DNA of 64,000 nucleotides from an uncultured Thermoplasmatales archaeon (lineage in GTDB: Archaea; Thermoplasmatota; Penumbrarchaeia; Penumbrarchaeales; Penumbrarchaeaceae): assembly GCA_964445525.1 (NCBI GenBank), contig CAYULA010000018.1, positions 36-64,035 on the forward strand, written 5' to 3'. The notes under the pieces are model-generated. The model was given only the letters and a program-made list of their open reading frames with translations, was not told the DNA's origin and searched no databases. Positions 39,803-50,372 of the stretch are shown in pieces. The position numbers and the translations under genes are program-made. The number at the start of each line of letters is the position of its first letter. The stretch's first letter is position 1.

Positions 39803-41131
39803 TCATGTATCATCAACCTTAACCCTCGTCTTCCCCGTCAGAAGTTGTTGCATAAGTCCTTTCTTTATTTCCGATAGGACCTTCTTTCTTTCATACAAAT
39901 TTTCGATCACACCATCAAGATCGAACAATGTTTTTGCAATCATTTTTTGTTCATTAATTTCAGGCATTGGTACCTGTATTCTCTTTAAACCACTTGGGTA
40001 AATATGAACTACAGAATGTCCTTGCCCCTTCTTTCGACTTTGTGAATAGAATATTTGGCTATTTAGAAGAAATGAGAGGAATTGAGAATCAGATTCCTTG
40101 TTTCTTAAAATAACGATATCTCCACCCGCAAAGGCATCTTCATTTCCTAGGTAGGCTATGGATTTGCCTATTTCATCAAGTGTTTCACCTGAACCTGCAA
40201 ATAAGACATCACCTGTTTTAATAGGTTCAGATTCATAAGTTGATTGTTCACTGATGTATGTTTTAAAACTATGAGTATAGAACCGATCAGTTGTATATAT
40301 TTGGCCATACGTGATACATGGAAAGCCTTCTGACCTCAGTTCACTCTTTGAAACTCCTTTTCCCCTATAGAATTGACCAAGTTCATCAAGAGTCACCACA
40401 TCCCAATCCAGAGGGACCTCTCCGATCTTTGTATCCTTGAATCCCTCTTTCTCGATGAATTCCTTGAACCGGACCTTCCCCGTGAGAAGCTGCTGCATCA
40501 ATCCTTTCTTGAGGTTCTCCTTCTCCTTGATAAGGGCCTCCGTCTTTTCAATAGCAAGGTCCCACGTTGAGAGGACCTCTGCGATCTTTTTTTGTTCAGG
40601 GAGTGGTGGAATAGGTATTAATAATGACTGGATTCTTGATAAGGCCAACTTTGGTTGGGCATTATTAGTTCCTGATTTTTTGATTAAGTATTGAATAGAA
40701 TTTGACATCATAATATATTTCAAAAAAACTTTATTAATTATGATATTTGTTAATTTATTTGCGTTTTCCGTTAGATTGGCACCATCTAGGTCAAGGGGAA
40801 TTTCTCCAACAATTCCTAATGTTCCAGCAACTGAAATAAACAAATCATCTTTTGATATTGTGTATCTTCGTATTGATGGAAAAACCTCCTCTGGGACATA
40901 ATGAATATCATCTGTTTTTACTCCTCCCATGTGCATGTCAACAACTCTGATATATGGATGTGAAGTCTTAATATCTGTAACAAATGTCCCTTTTGGTAAT
41001 CGTTTTCCACCTTTTACTTGGCAGATATCTTCAATTCTTTTTACATCCCAAGCCTTAGGAATCATACCAATTTTTGTCTCTTTATAATCATTACTTTCTA
41101 TCGACTTCATAATTCGCTTCACCTTCTTCAA
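39803..41131 (-). CDS. hsdS: Type I R-M specificity subunit (two target-recognition domains)
   Basis: Two variable TRDs are separated by conserved helices LPEQKKIAEVLS...LKKGLMQQLLTGKVRF and EQKMIAKTL...IKKGLMQQLLTGKTRV. Confidence 0.9.
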   Translation of the reverse strand: MKKVKRIMKSIESNDYKETKIGMIPKAWDVKRIEDICQVKGGKRLPKGTFVTDIKTSHPYIRVVDMHMGGVKTDDIHYVPEEVFPSIRRYTISKDDLFISVAGTLGIVGEIPLDLDGANLTENANKLTNIIINKVFLKYIMMSNSIQYLIKKSGTNNAQPKLALSRIQSLLIPIPPLPEQKKIAEVLSTWDLAIEKTEALIKEKENLKKGLMQQLLTGKVRFKEFIEKEGFKDTKIGEVPLDWDVVTLDELGQFYRGKGVSKSELRSEGFPCITYGQIYTTDRFYTHSFKTYISEQSTYESEPIKTGDVLFAGSGETLDEIGKSIAYLGNEDAFAGGDIVILRNKESDSQFLSFLLNSQIFYSQSRKKGQGHSVVHIYPSGLKRIQVPMPEINEQKMIAKTLFDLDGVIENLYERKKVLSEIKKGLMQQLLTGKTRVKVDDT

Positions 41132-41603
41132 TTCCTCTTCTAGCGATTATAAACGCCCATTTAGGAGGTTGGGGGCTTTTCTTGTTCAGTTCATCTCGTT
41201 TGTTATTAAGGTCCATAAGTTGTTGATATGGCTCATTTTTTGGTTTTTTCCGATCAATTCCAATCTCACGGAATATTCTAGCTCTATTTCTTAGTGAGTT
41301 GTATTTATTACCAGCTTCCAGATGAGAGCTAGCTCTTCCATTTGGATTAAGGAAAGTAGCGACGGCTGTTAGAGCTGTTACAATAATTGCTAGTATTCCT
41401 GCAATCAAAGTATGATTTGAAAAATCGGAAAGAGCCGATGCACCAGAAATAGCTGCTAAGATGGCTGTTGGAACTCCGATCCAAATGTGAAATCTTCTCC
41501 AAAAGGAAGCTGTGACAAAATGGCCTTTTGCAGAATAGAGGCTATCTTCCTCAATTCTCTTCGCTTCCTTCTGAATTCTATTCTTATCCATATTATCAGA
41601 CAT
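41091..41603 (-). CDS. SLATT-domain 2-TM protein (predicted membrane effector)
   Basis: The N-terminal helix with YSAKGHF is followed by two TM helices (HIWIGVPTAILAAISGASAL, LIAGILAIIVTALTAVATFL). A helical tail (AGNKYNSLRNRARIF) follows. It starts 3 nt after the SMODS stop. Confidence 0.7.
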   Translation of the reverse strand: MSDNMDKNRIQKEAKRIEEDSLYSAKGHFVTASFWRRFHIWIGVPTAILAAISGASALSDFSNHTLIAGILAIIVTALTAVATFLNPNGRASSHLEAGNKYNSLRNRARIFREIGIDRKKPKNEPYQQLMDLNNKRDELNKKSPQPPKWAFIIARRGIEEGEANYEVDRK

Positions 41604-41606
41604 CCG

Positions 41607-42476
41607 TTAATAAGCTGGGAATTTTTCAGCAAAGACCATATTCCACCAATAAAATGCATCTTGGATTTTACCTGCCTGCTCAGCATTTCTTGCCTTATCG
41701 GCTCGGATTAAAGCAGTTTCGATTTTAGATAGAGCATCTTCTCTTTTCGCCTCAGTGTTGCATGGATGAATATATCCAGAGATCCCGACTGGATCATGTA
41801 ATGATGCAAGACCACAATCTCGAAGAATCTTCAATATCTTCCTCACATCATATGAATATTGTATTCGGTCTTCTCCATAGGCATACTTTGCAATCTTCAT
41901 CTCAAGATATATTGATGATATGGGAACATTTCGTAGAAATTTCCAAGCCTTCGCGAAACGGATCAATGGTTTTACCTTTTTACTCAGTGCTTTATTTACT
42001 TCTGTAACATATGCATTCTGAGCATCTGGGGAGGTTCTCATCCATCCGTCAAAACTATTAGGAATTTCATAGATCTTGTATCCCCCAATTGTTTTATTTA
42101 TGTCATCAGCAGGTACGACCTCAGTGCTTTCACAACCATTTGTGCCGAAAGGAACAAGTACCGCAGGTTTTCGAACTGTCACCCCAGTATAAGGAAATCT
42201 TACATCTAGTGTATTTCGGATTTTCCTCAAAGTTGATGCAGAGTTTTGATTGAGGTTCTCAGTTGGGATCACAGCAAAATAATCTACATCGCTGTATCCG
42301 TGTATACTTGTACCATTCCCAAATGAACCGGTTTTAAAGAAACGAGTCATTCCATAGTTATTCATCAAACATTGTTTAATGGTCAATCGATGCCTCTCTG
42401 CTGCCTCGGATTCTCCACATGTGGGTATTAATCTTTGATGAAAGATTCGAAAACCTTCTTCAACGGTCTTAGCCAT
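41607..42476 (-). CDS. SMODS-type (pol-beta fold) nucleotidyltransferase
   Basis: FKTGSFGNGTSIHGYSDVDYFAVIP provides the GS-x9-13-DxD catalytic motif. A third acidic strand STEVVPADD follows. The N-terminal helix pattern F..F...L.PT..E is typical of SMODS. Confidence 0.7.
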   Translation of the reverse strand: MAKTVEEGFRIFHQRLIPTCGESEAAERHRLTIKQCLMNNYGMTRFFKTGSFGNGTSIHGYSDVDYFAVIPTENLNQNSASTLRKIRNTLDVRFPYTGVTVRKPAVLVPFGTNGCESTEVVPADDINKTIGGYKIYEIPNSFDGWMRTSPDAQNAYVTEVNKALSKKVKPLIRFAKAWKFLRNVPISSIYLEMKIAKYAYGEDRIQYSYDVRKILKILRDCGLASLHDPVGISGYIHPCNTEAKREDALSKIETALIRADKARNAEQAGKIQDAFYWWNMVFAEKFPAY

Positions 42477-42876
42477 ATAATTTCACCCCTCTTCCAATTA
42501 TTTCATTTTGAATGTAATAATAAGATTGAGGTACAACAAATCCCTTCGATTGATCGATCAGTCCATCATCTATTGAACACCGATCGAGATCAGTAACCTG
42601 AATAGCATAACCAGAGTTGGAATTTCGGAAATATTCTTTGAACTCTCTTTCTGATACACCTGAACCTTCTTTAAAGCGATCCCATAAGTCATCAGGAGGA
42701 CCTTCAACGATTTCACCAGGTTTGAATGATGCAACGATCCTCTTCACCGGCGATGTTGAATAAATAAAGACTCGGTCAACATCCTTCTTCCAGATCCTTT
42801 TCCGGAACTCATATTTCTTCTCTCCGGAGAGGACCTTCTCAACATATTTTGGTTTCATGGAAAGGAGGACATTCAT
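42469..42876 (-). CDS. ASCH (PUA-like) domain protein
   Basis: MNVLLSMKPKYVEKVLSGEKKYEFRKR is the characteristic ASCH N-terminus. Its stop overlaps the SMODS start by 8 nt. Confidence 0.8.
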   Translation of the reverse strand: MNVLLSMKPKYVEKVLSGEKKYEFRKRIWKKDVDRVFIYSTSPVKRIVASFKPGEIVEGPPDDLWDRFKEGSGVSEREFKEYFRNSNSGYAIQVTDLDRCSIDDGLIDQSKGFVVPQSYYYIQNEIIGRGVKLYG

Positions 42877-44024
42877 TGGAGGGCCTCCTCTTCATTTATT
42901 CCACTTTCATGATTCTCCTTCTTCTCAGTCTGCTTTCTCATCTCTCTCTTAAGCTCCCCCACCGTTGGTAAATATCCCTTCAATTCTTTGGGCATCTCAG
43001 CTGTCAAATTATATTCCGATACTCCAATGGGAGTAGAGTTGTTCCTGAGTGCATATTCGGCTATCAATTCCTTCTTTGTTTTGCAGAGGATCAATCCGAT
43101 ACTTGGGTTGTCGGTAGGGTGCGTTAGCAGATCATCCACGGCTGAAAGATAGAAGTTCATCTTACCGGCAAACTCGGTCTTGAACGTACCGGTCTTTAGA
43201 TCTATTACAATGAAGCATCTGAGTTTCAGGTGATAGAACAGCAGGTCTATGTAGAAGTCGTCACCTTCGAGTTCGAAATGATATTGGTTTCCGACGAAGG
43301 AGAAGCCTACTCCAAGTTCCAATAGAAACTTTCGAATGTGATCTACCAGAGCGTTCTCAAGTTCCCGCTCGGATGCATCAGTGGAAATGGTTAGGAAATC
43401 AAAGACGTACGGGTCCTTGATCGTCTGTTTTGCAAGGTCTGATTGTAATGGAGGTAGGCTTGCATCGAAGTTCGTCACTGCTTTGTCCTGGCGGTGGTAG
43501 AGACCGGTCTCTATCTGGTGAACAAGGACTGCACGGGACCAGCCGTATTCAATGGTCTTCTGCGCATACCAGAGACGTTCGATAGGCTCTTTTACCTTTT
43601 GTACCAGAACAATATTATGACCCCATGGTATTTCTGTCACAAGTTGTGACAGTTTTAATGTGGATGGGTCTGTCACAGCCCGTGACAGTTCTTCAATATC
43701 TTCTGTCCAGGCAAGGAAAAAAGCCCTCATACGCCATATATTCAGGGAAGAAAATCCCCTGATACCTGGGAACTCTGATTGAATATCCTTTGATAATCGC
43801 TCAACCACAAACTTGCCCCAACCCTGTTTCTTTTGCTGTGCAACGATAGATCTTCCGATCTCCCAGTATAGCTGGATCAATTCGCGGTTGACAGTGATTG
43901 CTGCTTTCACCTGTGCCGTTCTGATCCTGTTTTTCAGATCCAACAGCAATTCATAATAGCCCTCTGGTAGGCCTTGAACGTGTTCTCCCTCTGGGAAAGA
44001 TAACTCTGGTTCTTTATCTTGCAA
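42873..44024 (-). CDS. DUF1016 / YhcG-family PD-(D/E)xK nuclease
   Basis: The N-terminal NRELIQLYWEIGRSI...GWGKFVVERLSKDIQSEFPGIRGFS is present. The C-terminal nuclease core is YIDLLFYHLKLRCFIVIDLKTG. The start codon is apparently TTG at 44024. Confidence 0.85.
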   Translation of the reverse strand: MQDKEPELSFPEGEHVQGLPEGYYELLLDLKNRIRTAQVKAAITVNRELIQLYWEIGRSIVAQQKKQGWGKFVVERLSKDIQSEFPGIRGFSSLNIWRMRAFFLAWTEDIEELSRAVTDPSTLKLSQLVTEIPWGHNIVLVQKVKEPIERLWYAQKTIEYGWSRAVLVHQIETGLYHRQDKAVTNFDASLPPLQSDLAKQTIKDPYVFDFLTISTDASERELENALVDHIRKFLLELGVGFSFVGNQYHFELEGDDFYIDLLFYHLKLRCFIVIDLKTGTFKTEFAGKMNFYLSAVDDLLTHPTDNPSIGLILCKTKKELIAEYALRNNSTPIGVSEYNLTAEMPKELKGYLPTVGELKREMRKQTEKKENHESGINEEEALQ

Positions 44025-44141
44025 TCATTTCTCCTCCCAGATAATATTTTGACTTGGTCCCCGTTTCCGGAACTCGTATCGTTTATCTCCGGAGAGGACC
44101 TTTTCAACGTATTTTGGTTTCATGGAGAGGAGGACGTTCAT
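44025..44141 (-). pseudogene. ASCH gene 5' fragment (38 codons), duplicate of 42763-42876
   Basis: It translates to MNVLLSMKPKYVEKVLSGDKRYEFRKRGPSQNIIWEEK. About 80 nt align with the intact ASCH 5' end with about 10 mismatches. Confidence 0.6.
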
Positions 44142-44347
44142 GTGAGTACCTCCTTCAAACTATGTGTGGCAATTTCTGAAAGATTCTTGAAAGGGATAAT
44201 CGCCAAGTAATCACCAACTAATCGCCAACAGGACCTAATCTGCCATTTATTCAGCCCAAGATCGAATAGGAGAACGTTCATTGGAGGTCCTTCATTTCCC
44301 TTATGGTTTTGATCCGGTTTTCCGTTCACTTTTTCTCCTCCTTTCAC
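44138..44347 (-). pseudogene. doubtful ORF containing a third, shorter copy of the ASCH start junction
   Basis: An internal GPPMNVLL is encoded at 44266-44300, a region that resembles the RBS + ATG junction of the ASCH gene. The rest has no recognisable family. Confidence 0.3.
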
Positions 44348-44359
44348 AAGATAATTCGA

Positions 44360-44797
44360 TCATTCCGATCCGCATAATATGCAGAAATATGTCCCTTTAA
44401 AAACAGAATATGGGTCCCTCGCTCTATCAATCACTCTTCCACAAACCGAGCACTTCTCCAATTCGAATTTCGGTGGGTCCTTCAGCTTTGTATGATTGTA
44501 TTCATTGGTTCCAAGATATGCATACATCTCGGCGTCCAGTTCCTCCCTGCATTTCTTGCATGTTTCCCATTCTCCCTCATGCTTGTGTATATAATGGTAT
44601 GAACATAATGTGTAGTGATCATGGTTCCGATAGCATGAATTACGGGCATATGAAAACATAACATATTCATCCTCATCATCGCAGATAGGCATATCACAGC
44701 ATGGGGTTCGGGTCAGGTTCTTTGTTTTCCCACAGATGAAACAGCGTTCTTTTTCCGGTTCTTTCTTTTGGTCCTTCATCTTTCTTCTGTGTGACAT
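44360..44797 (-). CDS. Cys/His-rich putative zinc-binding protein, unknown family
   Basis: CFICGK...PCCDMPIC...CYRNHDHYTLCSYHYIHKH...CKKCREE...CSVCGR...CILCG. The start is ATG 44797, 4 nt after the upstream stop; the track start 44893 overlaps by 92 nt. Confidence 0.55.
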   Translation of the reverse strand: MSHRRKMKDQKKEPEKERCFICGKTKNLTRTPCCDMPICDDEDEYVMFSYARNSCYRNHDHYTLCSYHYIHKHEGEWETCKKCREELDAEMYAYLGTNEYNHTKLKDPPKFELEKCSVCGRVIDRARDPYSVFKGTYFCILCGSE

Positions 44798-44801
44798 TTT
44801 C

Positions 44802-45191
44802 TCACTCCGTATCATCAAATGAGATGAAGTCGACAGGTTCATCGAAGGTCTTCTCTGTTGCTTCTTTGATCTTACTTCGGGTCCTTCTGTCAAAGCTCAA
44901 AATCCTCTTTTTCAACTCATCAGCAAGTCTGTTAACCTCATCGTCATCCTCCAGATCCATCTCAACATCATCCTCGGAATAGACTGTAATCATGTTGTAA
45001 TACGGATCACTGTATATCGTGATGTTACCAAGCGGGAAGGTAATCGCCTTGATGTAATCATCACCGACTTCCCCTCGACCTGTCAATATCATGCTTATTT
45101 CAAGAAATCCATGAACCCTGGAAGACGGCAATCCGTGTGATTCATCCTCGACTTTCCGTATCATGCTTTTCAATCCTTTCATGATAATCAC
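44802..45191 (-). CDS. hypothetical acidic protein (129 aa)
   Basis: ORF in the coupled array. No family recognised. Confidence 0.5.
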   Translation of the reverse strand: MIIMKGLKSMIRKVEDESHGLPSSRVHGFLEISMILTGRGEVGDDYIKAITFPLGNITIYSDPYYNMITVYSEDDVEMDLEDDDEVNRLADELKKRILSFDRRTRSKIKEATEKTFDEPVDFISFDDTE

Positions 45192-45200
45192 CCCGTTTCA

Positions 45201-46100
45201 TCATCTCTTCAACTGGAACATGAAAACATGTTCACTTCTTTTCTCCGGTACTATGCCATTTAAATTATCGGTCAATTCCTTCTTTGTCTTTCCGCATCCG
45301 ACAATGATGCCATCAAGTACTCCGAACCAGCCATTTTCAATACCAGCTTCCTTCAGTATCTTCTTGAGGTCCCTGGAATGGACCTTCCCCATCTTCTGAT
45401 GATAGTAGACCTTCAACCGTTCATCCTTGTTTTTCAGTTCCTCTATCTCCTCCCAGTACACATCACGATTGTACTGGCTCTTCAGATATACCTTCAACAA
45501 CTCCAGATCATCCGTTTTCCCTTCTCTTCCATCGTAGGGCAACGAGGTGACAATTCCATGCCTGGCTTCTGCTTTCTGAAATGAAGCGTTGAAACTTTTC
45601 TTGATCCCCGCCCCGAACCTGATGTTGTAAGGATTGATCACTCCATCATAGACGATCTTTCCCTTGAACGGAAGCAAGGTTGTTTCCATTGGCACAGGAA
45701 GATAAGGACCGAGCATATCCTCGAATGTGTTGTTCAATGTGAGTACTCCGTATGGTATCCCATCATCCTCATTCTGAGACAGAACAACAGCATATTTTTT
45801 CAGATATTTTACAATGAGAAACCTTCCTCTGATGTAATGCTTGAAGTTGCTCACGATCTCCAGTTCCTCATCATTAAATCCAATTGGATTATCTGCTACA
45901 TATTGATCGATGATGTCTGGGTCATCATAAATTGCCATTCTCATATCAAGAAGATACTCCACGGGGAAATGGAATATGTCATCCGGTTCGAGTTCTTTTT
46001 TCAAGTTTCCTTTTTTCAGATTTGCATATATCAGAAGAGAGTGAAACAACCTTAAGAATTGATCCTTGTCCTTTTTTGATAATTTCATTTTTTCAACCAT
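45201..46100 (-). CDS. hypothetical protein (299 aa)
   Basis: A long ORF in an AT-rich context, overlapping its upstream neighbour by 16 nt. No family recognised. Confidence 0.6.
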   Translation of the reverse strand: MVEKMKLSKKDKDQFLRLFHSLLIYANLKKGNLKKELEPDDIFHFPVEYLLDMRMAIYDDPDIIDQYVADNPIGFNDEELEIVSNFKHYIRGRFLIVKYLKKYAVVLSQNEDDGIPYGVLTLNNTFEDMLGPYLPVPMETTLLPFKGKIVYDGVINPYNIRFGAGIKKSFNASFQKAEARHGIVTSLPYDGREGKTDDLELLKVYLKSQYNRDVYWEEIEELKNKDERLKVYYHQKMGKVHSRDLKKILKEAGIENGWFGVLDGIIVGCGKTKKELTDNLNGIVPEKRSEHVFMFQLKR

Positions 46101-46621
46101 CCTTCAAAATTAGCATCAACATATTCATCGACCATTTCAGGGTCCTCGCTCAATTCCTTCCATTCATCAACCACAGTTTCGAAGGTTTCCTTCGGAGCAT
46201 CCGGGACATAATCTTTGTAGCTTGATGTTGATTCGTTCTCAAATTTATTAAGACCTTTCAGGATTCCCATAAAATATCTGTCTCTTTCACGGGGAAGCTT
46301 CAACTTATTGAGTTTTCTTGCTTCCTTCAAGAAGGGTTCCACCTCTTCTTCGAACAATTCCCAGGCAAGATCGTTTGGATCGACGTAACCGTTTCTCGTT
46401 CCTCCGGAATGGTCCCAGATGTACTCGACCTTGATCATATCCAGCACGCAGAACAAATTGTCACCAATGTCATCCTCATGTATATCTGTAATGAATTCTA
46501 GGGCAATCTCTTCGACCTGTTCCACCAATTCATTATTCCTTTCCATCAATGTCATCAAAATTCCGATTGAATGTCTGTTGATCAGGTCACCGAGGATTTC
46601 GGGAGGCATTCCATTTTTCAT
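46085..46621 (-). CDS. hypothetical acidic protein (178 aa)
   Basis: ORF in the coupled array with a 4-nt overlap at its start. No family recognised. Confidence 0.55.
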   Translation of the reverse strand: MKNGMPPEILGDLINRHSIGILMTLMERNNELVEQVEEIALEFITDIHEDDIGDNLFCVLDMIKVEYIWDHSGGTRNGYVDPNDLAWELFEEEVEPFLKEARKLNKLKLPRERDRYFMGILKGLNKFENESTSSYKDYVPDAPKETFETVVDEWKELSEDPEMVDEYVDANFEGWLKK

Positions 46622-46899
46622 GCTGACGCAGCTCCTTCTAATTTGAAGTGATCACATAAGATGACCATATTGCGGAGATTCGCAATATGGTTGTACTGAA
46701 TCTGGACCATTTTGTCCGATTGGACAATATTGTGTGAAGGGGTTAGAACCATTTCGTTGATGTCAACAAAATGGTTTTGAGGTGGATTGTTGACCAATTC
46801 GTGTGGATACACGATATGGTTCTGGTGTTTGTGTGTAATCATATATCGGAAATGCTCGCAATGGTCTGAAATTGAACGAGTAAAGTCAATATCACTCAT
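46618..46899 (-). CDS. hypothetical 93-aa protein with 14-15-aa internal repeats (NH(I/F)V...(M/L)V), coincident with DNA palindromes
   Basis: The frame is open across an AT-rich region and overlaps both neighbours (8 nt and 4 nt). Its coding status is uncertain because the repeats are dyad-symmetric at the DNA level. Confidence 0.4.
   Translation of the reverse strand: MSDIDFTRSISDHCEHFRYMITHKHQNHIVYPHELVNNPPQNHFVDINEMVLTPSHNIVQSDKMVQIQYNHIANLRNMVILCDHFKLEGAASA
46664..46820. repeat. four phased imperfect palindromes with conserved ACCA(T/A)(A/T)T ... A(T/A)(A/T)TGGT ends
   Basis: H1 46664-46691: ACCATATTGCG-gagatt-CGCAATATGGT, 11/11 pairs. H2 46706-46733: 10/12 pairs. H3 46747-46776: AACCATTTCGTTGA-tg-TCAACAAAATGGTT, 13/14 pairs. 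H4 46793-46820: ACCAATTCGTGT-ggat-ACACGATATGGT, 10/12 pairs. The centres are 42, 42 and 45 bp apart. Confidence 0.75.
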
Positions 46900-48259
46900 C
46901 CTCTATCACCTCCCAATTTCCTTTCTTTGTTGAACCCGACCTTCTAATTTTACCCCTTCTTTTTAAATTTCTGATATGGTAATACACACCATAATAGGAA
47001 AGGTCAAGCACCTTTGATATCTCATTGATAGAGATGTCTGGATTATTTATCATCAAAGCCATAATTTTCTCAGGAATATCTCTTGTAGTTTCTTTTGTAG
47101 TTTCTTTTGTAGTTTCTTTTGTAGTAGCCTCAATTTCTGTTATCTTTCTGAAAACCACATCAAAATTATTTCCATTCTCGAAAAGGTCCAATTCAATCTC
47201 CGGATAATCTATCAATTCCCTTCGGATACGGACCATGCCACTTCCGTATTTCTCGATCTCTTTTACCAAATAAAAGCATTCTGCGATGAGAACATTTCTC
47301 AATGAAGATGAATAATTATCTCTTTTCAGATCATCAAGTGTGATGTCACCATACAATTTTCCAGGGCTGGATATCAGGATGTGATCATCGAATACCTTGA
47401 TGATGATATCGGAAGGATTCCGATAATCTCTATGAACTATTGCATTGATGACAGCTTCCCTTAAAGCTTCCAGGGGATACTCCCAGATCTCTTTCCTCTC
47501 CGGTTCTCCTGTAAATTCAAACCGTATACTGATCTGCTTTTTGATGGCCCACATCACCTCATCGACCGCTTCAAGAAGAGGCAGATGGATCATGATGTCA
47601 TCAATTATGACCGTCGGGGTTTTAAATCTTCCAATATGTATTCCATGAACTGGCCTGCTCTTTGAAAAAAGAAGCTCAGCTGCCACTGTGGGCCTATCAT
47701 CTTTTACCAGTTCGATCTTTTCAAGGGATCCAATTGGAGTCCCATCAAAATGGAACCTGCCGACCTTATTTACTTTATCAATGAACTTCTCTATTTTGTC
47801 AAGATCAAGTTGTTCAAATGTACGACAATAGTGAGATGGAGAGGAATCCCAGGAGTATTGGATTGCCATCATGTAAAGTTCTGTTACCTCATCTATCTCC
47901 TTCTGATGGTCGCTGTTATGCTTTCTAGTATAGTATCTACCTTTGAAAGAAATCGGCTTGAAGGAAGATTCCTTCACATCTATTATTACTACACGTTTTC
48001 CGTTTGCTTCAGAGATTGCCATGTCTGGAATTATTGAAGGATTTGTTTTCGTCTTGATCTCATTGGTCCAACTCTGCAATGATTCTGGACCAACATCAAT
48101 ACCCAATATTCTACCTTTGTTATTCACCCCCAAAATCACTTTCCCACCCTTTGAATTGGAAAAAGCGGAAAGAGTCCTGATAGTTTCAGCTCCGAATGAG
48201 GATTTGAATTCGACCTCCCCGTTTTCAAGGTTTTCTAGCAACTTATCCAGTTCATTCAT
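46892..48259 (-). CDS. AlbA_2 (Schlafen-like) + HATPase_c_4 + C-terminal wHTH protein (RecG-like putative regulator)
   Basis: The N-terminal ENGEVEFKSSF...LSAFSNSKGGKVILGVNNKGRILGI is an AlbA_2 motif. The central region has REAVINAIVHRDY and EKYGSGMVRI, followed by a C-terminal wHTH. Confidence 0.8.
   Translation of the reverse strand: MNELDKLLENLENGEVEFKSSFGAETIRTLSAFSNSKGGKVILGVNNKGRILGIDVGPESLQSWTNEIKTKTNPSIIPDMAISEANGKRVVIIDVKESSFKPISFKGRYYTRKHNSDHQKEIDEVTELYMMAIQYSWDSSPSHYCRTFEQLDLDKIEKFIDKVNKVGRFHFDGTPIGSLEKIELVKDDRPTVAAELLFSKSRPVHGIHIGRFKTPTVIIDDIMIHLPLLEAVDEVMWAIKKQISIRFEFTGEPERKEIWEYPLEALREAVINAIVHRDYRNPSDIIIKVFDDHILISSPGKLYGDITLDDLKRDNYSSSLRNVLIAECFYLVKEIEKYGSGMVRIRRELIDYPEIELDLFENGNNFDVVFRKITEIEATTKETTKETTKETTRDIPEKIMALMINNPDISINEISKVLDLSYYGVYYHIRNLKRRGKIRRSGSTKKGNWEVIEDE
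47085..47125. repeat. 12-bp tandem repeat GTAGTTTCTTTT x3.4 inside the AlbA_2 gene (encodes (TKET)n linker)
   Basis: Read directly at 47085-47125. The repeat is in frame and lies between the HATPase_c_4 region and the wHTH. Confidence 0.85.
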
Positions 48260-48274
48260 TTACTCAAATCCCAC

Positions 48275-49783
48275 CTATTCATACAATCCCAGCTCCTTCA
48301 GGTATCCTACCATCTTCTCCCGGACCTCTGCAAGCTCTCCCTCGAGTTCCTCTATCCTTCTCTGGGTCGCAGGGATGTCGATCTCTTCCTCTTCCTCGAA
48401 AGTATCCACGTATCTTGGTATATTGAGATTGAAGTCATTCTCCCTGATCTCATCGAAGGTTGCCCTGTAGGAGTATTTGTCAATGGTCTTGTAATCCTTG
48501 TAGGTGTTGTGTATCTTATCGATATCCTCGTCTCTCAGCTTGTTCTGCTTTTTCCCCTTCTGGAATTCCCTGGAAGCATCTATGAAAAGGACATCGGTTG
48601 TATCCCTTCCCTTTTTATAAACCAGGATCGCAGCAGGGATTCCCGTTCCAAAGAACAACTGTGATGGAAGCCCTATCACAGCATCGAGGAGGTTCTCCTC
48701 GATAAGTTTCTTCCTGATTTTCCCCTCGCTGGATCCTCTGAAGAGGACCCCATGAGGAACGACAACCCCCACTCTTCCATCATTTTCATTCATTGTCTCG
48801 ATCATATGAGTTATGAATGCATAGTCTCCCTTGCTTTTTGGAGGAACTCCCCTGTGGAACCTCCTGAACCGGTCGTCTTTTGCATCTTCGGCGCCCCATT
48901 TATCCAACGAAAAAGGAGGATTGGCAACCACAATGTTGAATTTCATCAGTGTGTCGCCCTCGAGCAATTTGGGGTTGTTGATGGTATCTCCCCATTCGAT
49001 CTGGGCATTGTTGACACCATGCAGGAACATATTCATCTTGCAAAGTGCCCATGTTGAACCATTGAGTTCCTGACCGTAAAGGGCAAAATCCTCCGAACCC
49101 ACCTCCCTTGCCACCTTGATCAACAGAGAACCGGATCCGACGGTGGGATCACAGATCCTGTCACCTTCTTCCGGGTCCACAAGTTTCGATATTAATATGG
49201 ACACTTCAGCCGGAGTGTAGAATTCTCCTCCCTTTTTTCCAGCGTCACTTGCGAAGTGGGAGATAAGATATTCATAGGTATTTCCGATTACATCGATGTT
49301 TCCGATACGTGACGGCCGCAGATCCAGCTTGGGATTTGAGAAATCTTCGATGAGATTCTTCAAGCGCCTGTTTCTATCCTTTGTCTGCCCGAGGGCGGTC
49401 TCCGAATTGAAGTCGATATTCCTGAAAACACCCTCCAATTTCGCTTTATTTGCCTCTTCTATCCTTGCCAGGGCTATGTTTATTTTCTCTCCTATATCAT
49501 TGTCATTTCTGTGTTTGTAAATGTAATCATAGGAACAATCTTCAGGCAGGATGAAGTTCTCGAACCTCATCATGTATCTGATCCTTTTCTCATCCCTTCC
49601 GTATTTTTCCTCATATTCTGCCACTCTGTCCTTCCACAGATCGCTGATATATTTGAGGAAAAGAAAGACCAGTATGTAATTCTTGTATTCAGAAGGATCA
49701 ATGACACCTCTGAAGGTATCACAGGCTCTCCATGCGACATTGTTTATCTCGGTTTGATCAATATTATCCCCCACTCTAATCAC
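48275..49783 (-). CDS. hsdM: Type I R-M DNA methyltransferase subunit
   Basis: It has an HsdM N-domain, the SAM motif DPTVGSGSLL and the catalytic motif VVANPPFS. Confidence 0.95.
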   Translation of the reverse strand: MIRVGDNIDQTEINNVAWRACDTFRGVIDPSEYKNYILVFLFLKYISDLWKDRVAEYEEKYGRDEKRIRYMMRFENFILPEDCSYDYIYKHRNDNDIGEKINIALARIEEANKAKLEGVFRNIDFNSETALGQTKDRNRRLKNLIEDFSNPKLDLRPSRIGNIDVIGNTYEYLISHFASDAGKKGGEFYTPAEVSILISKLVDPEEGDRICDPTVGSGSLLIKVAREVGSEDFALYGQELNGSTWALCKMNMFLHGVNNAQIEWGDTINNPKLLEGDTLMKFNIVVANPPFSLDKWGAEDAKDDRFRRFHRGVPPKSKGDYAFITHMIETMNENDGRVGVVVPHGVLFRGSSEGKIRKKLIEENLLDAVIGLPSQLFFGTGIPAAILVYKKGRDTTDVLFIDASREFQKGKKQNKLRDEDIDKIHNTYKDYKTIDKYSYRATFDEIRENDFNLNIPRYVDTFEEEEEIDIPATQRRIEELEGELAEVREKMVGYLKELGLYE

Positions 49784-50372
49784 TCCCCTGAATGATATTC
49801 AATGATACCTTTTCAATGATTTTTTTCTTATGGTCGATTATATCTTCTGACAGCCTCTGTTCTTCTTTTATTAGCTTGTCCAGCATAATTATCCTCTCCT
49901 GGTTTTTCAATGATGGGACGGGGATCTCCATATTTTCAATTGTTGTTTTTTTCAAGAAAGGAACACTTGTTCCTCCCATTCTATTTTTCAGGTATCTCTG
50001 TATCTTCCTGGTTTTGAAGTACCAAAGAAGATAGTCAGGATCAATGATATTCTTATCAATGTTAATTATGAGAAATTGATCCGTTACGGCATATGATCCT
50101 TTTGGAAAATTCACTTTAAAAAATATGGGTCTTGATGATTTGGATTTTACGATGACGTCATCCGGCCCGATTATTGCAGATGTTTTGATGTCTGAAAACC
50201 TCACCCTGTGCAGTTTATGAAATTCAATATCCGAGGCCTGATCAACATCAGATGGTTGAATCAGGTTGACCTCTCCTCTCGGGAGATTCCTGATGCCATT
50301 CCTGAAAAGATGGCCCTGCCTTATGGTTGCAATATCAGCCATCTTTTTGTTGGAAGTAAATGAATACTTCAT
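49776..50372 (-). CDS. half-size Type I specificity subunit (single TRD)
   Basis: One variable domain followed by the conserved helix PSLKNQERIIMLDKLIKEEQRLSEDIIDHKKKIIE. Its stop overlaps the hsdM start by 8 nt. Confidence 0.7.
   Translation of the reverse strand: MKYSFTSNKKMADIATIRQGHLFRNGIRNLPRGEVNLIQPSDVDQASDIEFHKLHRVRFSDIKTSAIIGPDDVIVKSKSSRPIFFKVNFPKGSYAVTDQFLIINIDKNIIDPDYLLWYFKTRKIQRYLKNRMGGTSVPFLKKTTIENMEIPVPSLKNQERIIMLDKLIKEEQRLSEDIIDHKKKIIEKVSLNIIQGSD

Follow-up and report, generated by a model that had tools for sequence, protein, structure and literature searches.

Tandem 30-nucleotide palindromes in an open reading frame of an archaeal defense island and their apparent kinship with a coding palindrome of dinD

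The REP/BIME sequences of enterobacteria (repetitive extragenic palindromes and bacterial interspersed mosaic elements) are tandem imperfect palindromes that lie between cistrons, show compensatory stem changes, act on mRNA stability, and bind proteins; they are non-coding and dispersed, number in the hundreds in a genome, have a 5' GTAG, and owe their mobility to RAYT transposases. Baculovirus homologous regions (hrs) are tandem 30-bp imperfect palindromes with a period of ~70 bp that are bound by IE-1 dimers, often lie beside bro genes, and have an origin and enhancer role. Lambda-type origin iterons are phased dyad-symmetric sites within the initiator gene, with inner sequences that show no compensatory variation. 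Phages carry mimic arrays of type III toxin-antitoxin RNA, and the recognition sites of type I restriction enzymes have gaps of 5 to 8 nt. Rickettsia palindromic elements, confined to one genus, are dispersed sequences of 100 to 150 bp that lie in frame within protein-coding genes (PMC1166351, PMC1458961). Here we describe a tandem array of five 30-nt palindromic units within a 93-codon open reading frame (ORF; p93) in a defense island of an uncultured Thermoplasmatales archaeon, contained in a 64,000-nucleotide stretch of contig CAYULA010000018.1 (assembly GCA_964445525.1) that we call the window. We put at roughly 0.45 the probability that the array is a hairpin-forming cis element, acting at the nucleotide level, within a translated carrier ORF that bridges two genes; judged from sequence, its closest relative is a palindrome in the coding region of dinD.

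The array lies at window positions 46663-46866 and comprises four good palindromes and one decayed copy of the form rACCAT-N18-ATGGTy. The units are all exactly 10 codons (30 nt) long and in frame with the minus-strand ORF; the coding order runs from U0 to U4, and inner-arm types such as E/L or V/N refer to residues 4 and 7 of the encoded decapeptide.

46618-46899, minus strand: p93, the 93-codon carrier ORF, overlapping the neighboring genes at its start and stop; open in 7 of the 8 related arrays
46837-46866, minus strand: U0 (DHCEHFRYMI), decayed in the window, with orthologues that are E/L-type palindromes resembling that of Escherichia coli dinD
46792-46821, minus strand: U1 (NHIVYPHELV), inner arms CGTGT/ACACG; 36.9 bits; -11.5 kcal/mol
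46747-46776, minus strand: U2 (NHFVDINEMV), V/N type, GTTGAC/ATCAAC; 37.5 bits; -14.7 kcal/mol
46705-46734, minus strand: U3 (HNIVQSDKMV), inner arms TGTCC/GGACA; 34.0 bits
46663-46692, minus strand: U4 (NHIANLRNMV), A/R type, TTGCG/CGCAA; 38.8 bits; -16.2 kcal/mol
46693-46836, minus strand: span with U1 to U3 and the four spacers between the five units (46693-46704, 46735-46746, 46777-46791, and 46822-46836)

A first-pass annotation of the window had reported U4, U3, U2, and U1 as palindromes H1 to H4, and a recount bore out both their positions and their pair counts, with 11/11 positions paired in H1 (46664-46691), 10/12 in H2 (46706-46733), 13/14 in H3 (46747-46776; 14/14 on the coding strand if one U·G is counted), and 10/12 in H4 (46793-46820). 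It had also described a fifth, degenerate copy retaining only the ends. This copy is indeed decayed in the window, but its orthologues in the related archaeal loci L001, L004, L005, and L008 pair at 9 to 10 of 13 positions, showing that U0 is a true unit. The unit centers are spaced 42/42/45/45 nt apart, leaving spacers of 12 or 15 nt that are G-poor on the coding strand. The proposal that a 42-bp spacing reflects helical phase does not hold generally, as archaeal arrays use 42, 45, or 48 and the phage arrays described below 41 to 46.

Allowing at most 1 mismatch, ACCAT-N18-ATGGT occurs 9 times in the 64 kb against 2.95 expected, and 5 of the 9 make up the array. There are 17 palindromes that have 12-nt arms with 10 or more pairs (5.4 expected); 4 fall in the array, and only those have the common ends. 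Folding of a 301-nt region, a check proposed at the outset, gave z-scores of -5.6 for the coding (minus) strand and -4.4 for its complement. No copies elsewhere in the 64-kb window were found with a covariance model of the unit, and the Rfam 15 covariance models, run with E values up to 5 against window positions 44000-49000, gave no match.

Comparison among archaea requires the two genes that flank the array in the window.

46892-48259, minus strand: upstream gene (here the regulator gene), 455 aa, with AlbA_2 (Schlafen-type), HATPase_c_4, and winged helix-turn-helix (wHTH) domains (matches at 5e-20, 7e-18, and 7e-07)
46085-46621, minus strand: gene for a downstream 178-aa acidic protein, which opens a variable cargo block and has no fixed link to the array

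Protein and contig look-ups yielded eight distinct arrays (the window, L001, L046-48, L008, L004, L005, L271, and L272), that of the window being identical in L002 and L003 and that of L004 in 11 further contigs; as a protein, p93 has only 6 relatives among the 5.8 billion searched. The eight loci carry 2 to 6 units each, of six recognizable types (U0, U1, U2, U2', U3, and U4) with type-specific inner arms. Units are gained or lost between loci as whole 42- or 45-nt blocks, and L001 has an additional unit with inner arms CCC/GTG. All archaeal spacings are 42, 45, or 48, multiples of 3 that keep the frame throughout. In L272 (2100-2190), an in-frame TAG stands ahead of the last unit (ACCATATTGCGTACCTCCGCAAAATGGT), which is still well paired and in the same frame. 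The array directly follows the regulator gene in all eight loci, even where that gene is only 31 to 39% identical to its counterpart in the window, and this is the only gene constantly linked to it. The downstream partner varies: the 178-aa cargo block may follow, or an ASCH gene and the cyclase of a cyclic-oligonucleotide-based antiphage signaling system (CBASS) in L271, an ASCH fragment and YhcG in L272, or an ASCH fragment and the 178-aa gene in L005. That the array is not tied to the 178-aa gene follows from ~35 loci with distant homologues of this gene, none of which has a hairpin array beside it.

The 25 distinct archaeal units support the first-pass proposal that the dyad itself is maintained. 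Across them 82.7% of cells are paired, compared with 71.4% after shuffling, and the score for covariation, 0.321 (shuffles, 0.127), is reached by 0 of 500 shuffles; sliding the partner columns drops pairing to 35 to 45%. Pairs 9 to 12 alternate among U-A, C-G, and G-C, and pair 7/24 is mismatched in 15 of the 25. Site conservation was compared between arrays whose regulator genes share 39 to 70% amino acid identity. Third-position identity is 0.70 to 0.82 in the units versus 0.33 to 0.46 in the regulator gene, and synonymous-site identity in conserved residues is 0.76 to 0.84 versus 0.42 to 0.56; within the units, second codon positions are the most conserved (0.90 to 0.97). Spacer amino acid identity is 8 to 33%, and the spacer nucleotides are not conserved either. 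Each unit type, loops included, retains 87 to 90% identity between lineages whose neighboring gene is saturated at synonymous sites and whose spacers are unrecognizable. Where residue 2 is His, it is always encoded by CAT and preceded by a codon that ends in C with a variable first base and hence a variable residue (N, D, S, Y, or H) in the 20 units of the first five arrays, a pattern with which L046 agrees. Homologues keep the dyads through nonsynonymous changes; the pattern expected of protein-level selection alone, with the peptide kept and the dyads lost by synonymous change, was not seen. We take the nucleotides and the complementarity of the arms to be what is maintained in the units, with the spacers free save for their length and the absence of stops, and think that the constraint on the array probably acts mainly on nucleotides.

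In annotated phages the unit is often found within genes named DNA-damage-inducible protein D. DinD proteins contain a Bro-N domain, and the unit encodes their DHFxxxxxMV segment; an independent look-up placed it at codons 59-68 of E. coli K-12 dinD, where GACCATTTCGAGGAGATCCTCGATATGGTC encodes DHFEEILDMV (GATCACTTTGAAGAAATTTTAGACATGGTG is an example of a synonymous recoding of this sequence).

NC_000913.3 3817934-3817963 (L190 3935-3964): E. coli K-12 dinD palindrome, 30 nt, 13/14 of positions 1-14 paired

This palindrome is identical to the archaeal U0 of L005 at 26 of 30 positions. A DinD set chosen without reference to the motif, consisting of 80 loci retrieved by peptide patterns upstream of the segment, was parsed into 31 distinct 30-mers, 28 of which have the motif. 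These 28 units pair at 10.5 of 12 positions on average versus 7.7 for synonymous resampling with their own codon usage (P < 0.05 for most). In the DinD units 95.2% of cells are paired versus 83.6% in shuffles, the covariation score is 0.375 versus 0.140 (0/500 shuffles), and six pairs have changes on both sides (again 0/500 shuffles). Residues 4 and 7 use reverse-complementary codons in the 28 distinct DinD genes, the types being V/N (GTT-AAC), G/T (GGT-ACC), A/G (GCC-GGC), E/L (GAG-CTC), A/R (GCG-CGC), and S/G (TCC-GGA). The archaeal array combines types that are single in DinD genes (E/L, V/N, and A/R), and the V/N type of U2 is the commonest among DinD genes and phages. If a DinD-type coding palindrome is defined as an in-frame 30-nt sequence that encodes [DNS]H[FI]xxxxx[ML][VI] and has at least 9 to 10 of 12 arm pairs, then 4 of the 5 window units and the 28 DinD genes contain one; p93, which has no Pfam match, lacks the Bro-N location with the following GSG...SRYACYL stretch. 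Three DinD variants (L253, L265, and L270) lack the whole DHFxxxxxMV...GSG segment (…AGATHKDIGDIMLSRYACY…), so the palindrome-encoded segment is dispensable for at least some members of the family. A sequence search for a DinD structure in the PDB found none, and our literature search found no paper with the unit sequence or linking dinD to a palindrome.

The kinship with DinD raises the question of whether the peptide is what matters. In that case p93 would present multivalent DinD-like 10-residue motifs ([DN]H[FI]xxxxx[ML]V) on Pro/Gln/Ser/Thr-rich linkers, and the palindromy would be a mirrored relic. The linkers do have this composition, DinD, a genuine protein family, conserves the motif as one of its segments, conservation extends to the ORF together with its strong Shine-Dalgarno sequence and its coupling, and the frame-preserving archaeal spacings and conserved second codon positions are as this explanation would have them; alignment of p93 with the DinD segment by hhalign gave a probability of 53%, with only the motif itself aligned. 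Yet between the window and L004 p93 is 46% identical while the neighboring genes are 69 to 87% identical, so it diverges faster than they do, and its E/K and H/Q changes track the pairing partner. AlphaFold run on four p93 sequences gave a pLDDT of 47.6 and no fold, a point weakened by the shallow alignment. The handful of relatives among billions of proteins, the in-frame stop of L272, and the phage copies, often non-coding or in another frame, also speak against a functional peptide, which we regard as improbable. The first-pass suggestion of a real repeat protein is accordingly the weakest of its three readings, given the free spacers and conserved third positions as well.

Copies of the palindrome are widespread in phages. 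Viral contigs scanned for neighboring pairs of ACCAT-N18-ATGGT, with the inner arms left free, gave 11 loci; 10 of them have truly palindromic inner arms (10 to 12 of 12 pairs) and are arrays of 2 to 4 units, mostly between genes. A single-unit pattern gave, among the matches listed, to which the general statements on phage units in this text refer, 129 loci, 106 with one unit and 22 with 2 to 4. Spacings in the phage arrays are mostly 41 to 46, with 11 of 18 not multiples of 3. The unit consensus is ACCATTTTSNTGAY followed by RTCANSAAAATGGT, with covarying positions 10/21 and 11/20. Units sit between genes or inside ORFs, where they are read in frame 0 ([DN]H[FI]xD[VI]x[KE]MV) or frame 2 (lipoprotein signal peptides are an example); frame 1, with its TGA, is never used. 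Several lie 0 to 3 nt past a stop codon, many phage ORFs start or finish at a unit, and many units are in lysogeny or accessory regions. We found no conserved flanks, no signal resembling a target-site duplication, and no common neighboring gene, and DinD is encoded within the fetched locus (~5 to 7 kb each side) in ~5 of the 129. The phage array in L060 mixes unit types similar to those of the archaeal array. L061 has an 83-codon phage ORF (5882-6133, minus strand) that is mostly three units and occupies the space between two genes of the same strand; the stop codon overlaps the start of the following gene, as in the archaeal bridging ORF, and the third unit is read in a different frame.

Units so varied in setting might be nothing more than a self-maintaining, functionless insert, a DinD-type quasi-palindrome duplicated in tandem whose arms are mirrored by template switching; we consider this unlikely, and its further premise, that the insert persists since two stop-free frames leave translational coupling intact, unlikely as well. 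Template switching during replication is an established route of mutation that corrects quasipalindromes, a change in one arm being copied to the other (PMC7202029), and such mirroring can produce covariation-like patterns without selection for a hairpin. Whole-block gain and loss of units, freely drifting spacers, the in-frame TAG of L272, mismatches without strand bias, the absence of an array in L006 (see below), and phage copies placed in any context, in frame 0 or 2 and never 1, would all fit such an insert. Mirroring preserves complementarity, however, and not sequence, whereas unit types are 87 to 90% identical across lineages and identical types recur in E. coli dinD, phages, and archaea. 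Template switching cannot keep the sequence of a unit type, loops included, while the spacers and the neighboring synonymous sites randomize, so that some selection on the units is needed.

Another use of the phage copies would make the archaeal array a decoy or sensor, displaying DinD-type palindromes to a factor of a virus or mobile element (e.g., a Bro-N/DinD-like protein) and either titrating this factor or reporting it to the defense cargo; in the mirror image, the phage arrays would be anti-defense decoys. The array does combine types that are separate in DinD genes and phages (E/L, V/N, and A/R), it is surrounded by a defense island with type I restriction-modification (R-M), CBASS, and YhcG nuclease genes, and the phage copies cluster in lysogeny and accessory regions. 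The reader protein is only hypothetical, though; few phage loci encode DinD nearby, and Pfam scans, which covered parts of the window, detected no Bro-N gene there. We hold the decoy or sensor to be a distinctly remote prospect, and its mirror image equally so.

The carrier ORF is translationally coupled on both sides, a point absent from the first-pass annotation. Its ATG (46899-46897) overlaps the stop of the regulator gene (46894-46892), and its stop (46620-46618) overlaps the ATG of the 178-aa gene (46621-46619), with ribosome-binding sequences at both junctions.

46906-46914, minus strand: Shine-Dalgarno-like GGGAGGTGA, 6 nt before the p93 ATG, within the end of the upstream gene
46632-46638, minus strand: GAAGGAG, the Shine-Dalgarno sequence of the downstream 178-aa gene, encoded in the p93 tail

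The core of the former, TGGGAGGT, is kept in L001, L004, L005, L008, and L271 and reads TGGGAGG in L272. The ORF belongs to a long minus-strand type I R-M operon with nested cargo, which runs from a half-size hsdS and hsdM through the regulator gene, p93, and four unassigned genes to a YhcG nuclease gene and continues through an ASCH gene, a CBASS cyclase with its 2TM effector, and a full hsdS to another wHTH gene and hsdR. The first hsdS is half-size (198 aa, with a single target-recognition domain; 49776-50372) and precedes hsdM, and the full-size hsdS (442 aa; 39803-41131) lies 9 kb downstream; the CBASS pair is nested between hsdM and the full-length hsdS (SMODS cyclase, 41607-42476; 2TM effector, 41091-41603), and an ASCH/PDC-M11B gene (42469-42876) is nested beside it. 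A Cys-rich 177-aa protein with several CxxC pairs and no family match (44360-44893) overlaps the end of a 129-aa gene by ~90 nt. Elsewhere the window encodes the replication factor C large subunit, a mark of its archaeal origin, which the first-pass annotation had missed.

Searches of p93 and the four unassigned downstream proteins against Pfam, PADLOC, NCBIfam, and PHROGs gave nothing useful, the 178-aa protein having no match in any of the four; a RaiA match at 18 bits against a cut-off of 158 was dismissed as noise. Relatives of the 178-aa protein are mostly encoded in Methanosarcinales and ANME genomes, and a scan of a genome collection with a 299-aa protein gave no match. Two candidate features near the array were rejected as chance after both proved to be missing from L004, L008, and L005: a 23-nt complementarity of the decayed U0 (46831-46853) with the regulator gene (46967-46989), and an everted ATGGT...ACCAT repeat (46968-47000) in the wHTH-coding part of that gene.

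Short 5' fragments of ASCH genes recur at the borders of the cargo blocks (L001 10661-10729, L004 8044-8109, L005 1131-1304, and L272 2217-2279), an arrangement suggestive of cargo exchange through recombination at this recurring sequence. That the array is itself a recombination junction for cargo exchange is conceivable, as the cargo differs directly downstream of it and units mark the beginning or end of many phage ORFs, but the recurrent junctions are the ASCH 5' fragments and not the units.

The setting of the array within an operon bears on what its stems might do in a transcript. As mRNA hairpins in their own right, comparable to REP sequences, they could protect an upstream segment from exonucleases, serve as processing sites, or pace ribosomes between regulator and cargo. 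The array is intercistronic in a long minus-strand operon, the RNA stems of three units are stable (-11.5 to -16.2 kcal/mol), the fold z-score is strongly negative on the coding strand, the spacers are G-poor there, one U·G makes U2 perfect on that strand only, and several phage units lie just beyond a stop codon. On the other hand, A·C mismatches exceed G·U on the coding strand (14 versus 6), no Rfam family matches, ribosomes would melt stems located in a translated ORF, and structure alone needs neither a conserved sequence nor unit types. The RNA hairpins of the first-pass annotation are a possible reading, but the transcribed strand shows no bias toward G·U over A·C, and hairpins acting simply as such seem to us quite unlikely.

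We return to the reading that we favor, a nucleotide-level element in a carrier ORF, which would assign p93 the role of a vehicle and not of a folded repeat protein: the ORF would be kept open to let ribosomes pass through the array and start again downstream, and the preserved frame fits such a need. The array would then be a cis element at the border between a constant hsdS-hsdM-regulator module and variable defense cargo, and could offer a multivalent ligand, as double-stranded RNA stems or as DNA, to the co-inherited upstream protein. The palindromes with their complementary arms, the conservation at synonymous sites, the open and coupled ORF, the constant upstream gene, and the wider palindrome family are all observed; we infer that the hairpins form in vivo, in whichever of DNA or RNA is the relevant molecule, and that the upstream protein binds them with some effect. 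As the candidate ligand-binding partner of the stems this protein is a tentative choice, possible but on balance doubtful; binding would buffer the protein or gate it, or gate expression of the downstream genes. We favor it because it is the only constant partner, its AlbA_2 domain is of the Schlafen/SAMD9 class, and a wHTH domain is also encoded. AlbA_2 domains of this class carry a ribonuclease site (tRNA cleavage in SAMD9/9L), sensing of double-stranded nucleic acids by SAMD9 has also been reported, and in bacteria AlbA_2 domains are linked to defense systems (PMC12680541).

The first-pass annotation had suggested an operator array for an adjacent wHTH protein. The constant position of the array after that gene agrees with this, as do the conserved outer ACCAT/ATGGT; however, the palindromes are also present at loci with no gene for such a protein in the vicinity, no site lies near the operon start, the spacing is not helically phased, and the link to the wHTH protein is one of synteny in eight loci. 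Moreover, binding by a dimer leaves the complementarity of the inner arms unexplained.

This last point is one of several that weigh against our own reading too, as dimer binding would not require complementary inner arms. There is no unit at the operon promoter or elsewhere in the 64-kb window. In L006 the 3' end of the regulator gene, which is all of that gene the contig holds, is joined directly to the 178-aa gene without an array, and the regulators of L001 (7484-8008) and L046 (2164-2688) have lost the AlbA_2 half, leaving 174 aa with HATPase_c_4 and wHTH domains upstream of an intact six-unit array. The DNA within ~6 kb of the phage units encodes no relative of any island protein, the regulator included, and end conservation of the phage units is ascertained and not measured, because the search patterns fixed the ends. 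G·U mismatches do not exceed A·C consistently on the transcribed strand (6 versus 14 in archaeal units; 12 versus 5 in DinD, with 8 of the 12 from one lineage), so RNA is not singled out. Template-switch mirroring could be behind part of the covariation. Finally, complementarity ties each third codon position to the first position of the partner codon; peptide selection could therefore contribute, and the synonymous-site conservation could be partly indirect.

The palindrome family, which the first-pass annotation had not recognized, spans archaea, bacteria, and phages and, no description having been found in the literature or Rfam, is apparently undescribed. A broader proposal is that the 30-nt unit is a cross-domain cis element with its own trans-acting reader, kept in dinD genes, phage accessory regions, and archaeal defense islands. 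Arrays would be ligands for Schlafen-type AlbA_2 or Bro-N/DinD-type proteins, acting as antitoxin-like buffer, sponge, or infection sensor, and the DinD segment and the hairpin that encodes it would co-evolve under the reverse-complement codon rule. We think this unlikely as it stands.

If the nucleotide-level reading is true, the ORF is kept only as the vehicle of a structured element, which bears on the annotation of small ORFs in defense islands, and the arms of the palindrome in dinD, a conserved bacterial gene that is easily manipulated in E. coli K-12, dictate two covarying residues, a testable case of nucleic acid structure shaping protein sequence. Recurrence in phage accessory regions and beside a Schlafen-type AlbA_2 gene would then suggest that a hairpin ligand, a decoy, or a recombination module may be at work in virus-host exchange. 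If instead the template-switch account is true, the palindromes are a natural case of concerted evolution of arms over deep time, and covariation alone is no proof of functional structure.

Set against known systems, the array is readily distinguished from several of them. Its units differ from one another and its spacers are 12 to 15 nt, unlike a CRISPR array with identical repeats of 28 to 37 nt and unique spacers of 30 to 40 nt, and the 18-nt gap within a unit is too wide for the recognition site of a type I enzyme. It shares with the RNA antitoxins of type III toxin-antitoxin systems (ToxI, CptI, and TenpI) a tandem arrangement, a period of ~40 nt, and a place beside a defense-associated gene with a possible nuclease domain. 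It differs from them in that its units are not near-identical direct repeats (34 to 45 nt in type III), that it comes after its candidate partner gene and not before, with stops and starts of the array ORF and its neighbors overlapping, and that no ToxN, AbiQ, CptN, or TenpN protein was found, the 178-aa downstream protein having no family match. The first-pass judgment that this is not a type III antitoxin array was sound: copies are 61 to 71% identical to a reference copy and have only the ends in common.

Other resemblances are partial. Like REP/BIME sequences, the array consists of imperfect palindromes of 20 to 40 nt clustered within an operon, but it is translated, has no second copy in 64 kb, and has a unit shared across domains of life. 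Rickettsia palindromic elements likewise show palindromes tolerated in frame inside a coding gene, whereas most of the ORF here consists of the units, which are 30 nt long and tandem. By description, baculovirus hrs are also arrays of ~30-bp imperfect palindromes linked to Bro-N family genes, yet they differ in sequence and period, are non-coding, and belong to eukaryotic viruses. Lambda-type iterons, again by description, likewise place several dyad-symmetric sites within an ORF, but family scans of the neighboring genes detected no replication initiator adjoining the window array, and its inner arms vary by compensation. From these comparisons, we view the array as resembling REP/BIME, Rickettsia palindromic elements, and baculovirus hrs in part while failing the defining features of each. 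The dinD palindrome stands closer: its unit is likewise 30 nt long and read in the same frame, and it agrees with the array in its ends (GAC CAT ... ATG GTy), its inner-arm types, and the reverse-complementary codons of residues 4 and 7. DinD contains a single unit in a folded Bro-N domain, followed by the GSG...SRYACYL stretch, whereas the array strings together 2 to 6 tandem units with free spacers, outside any Bro-N domain, in an archaeal host.

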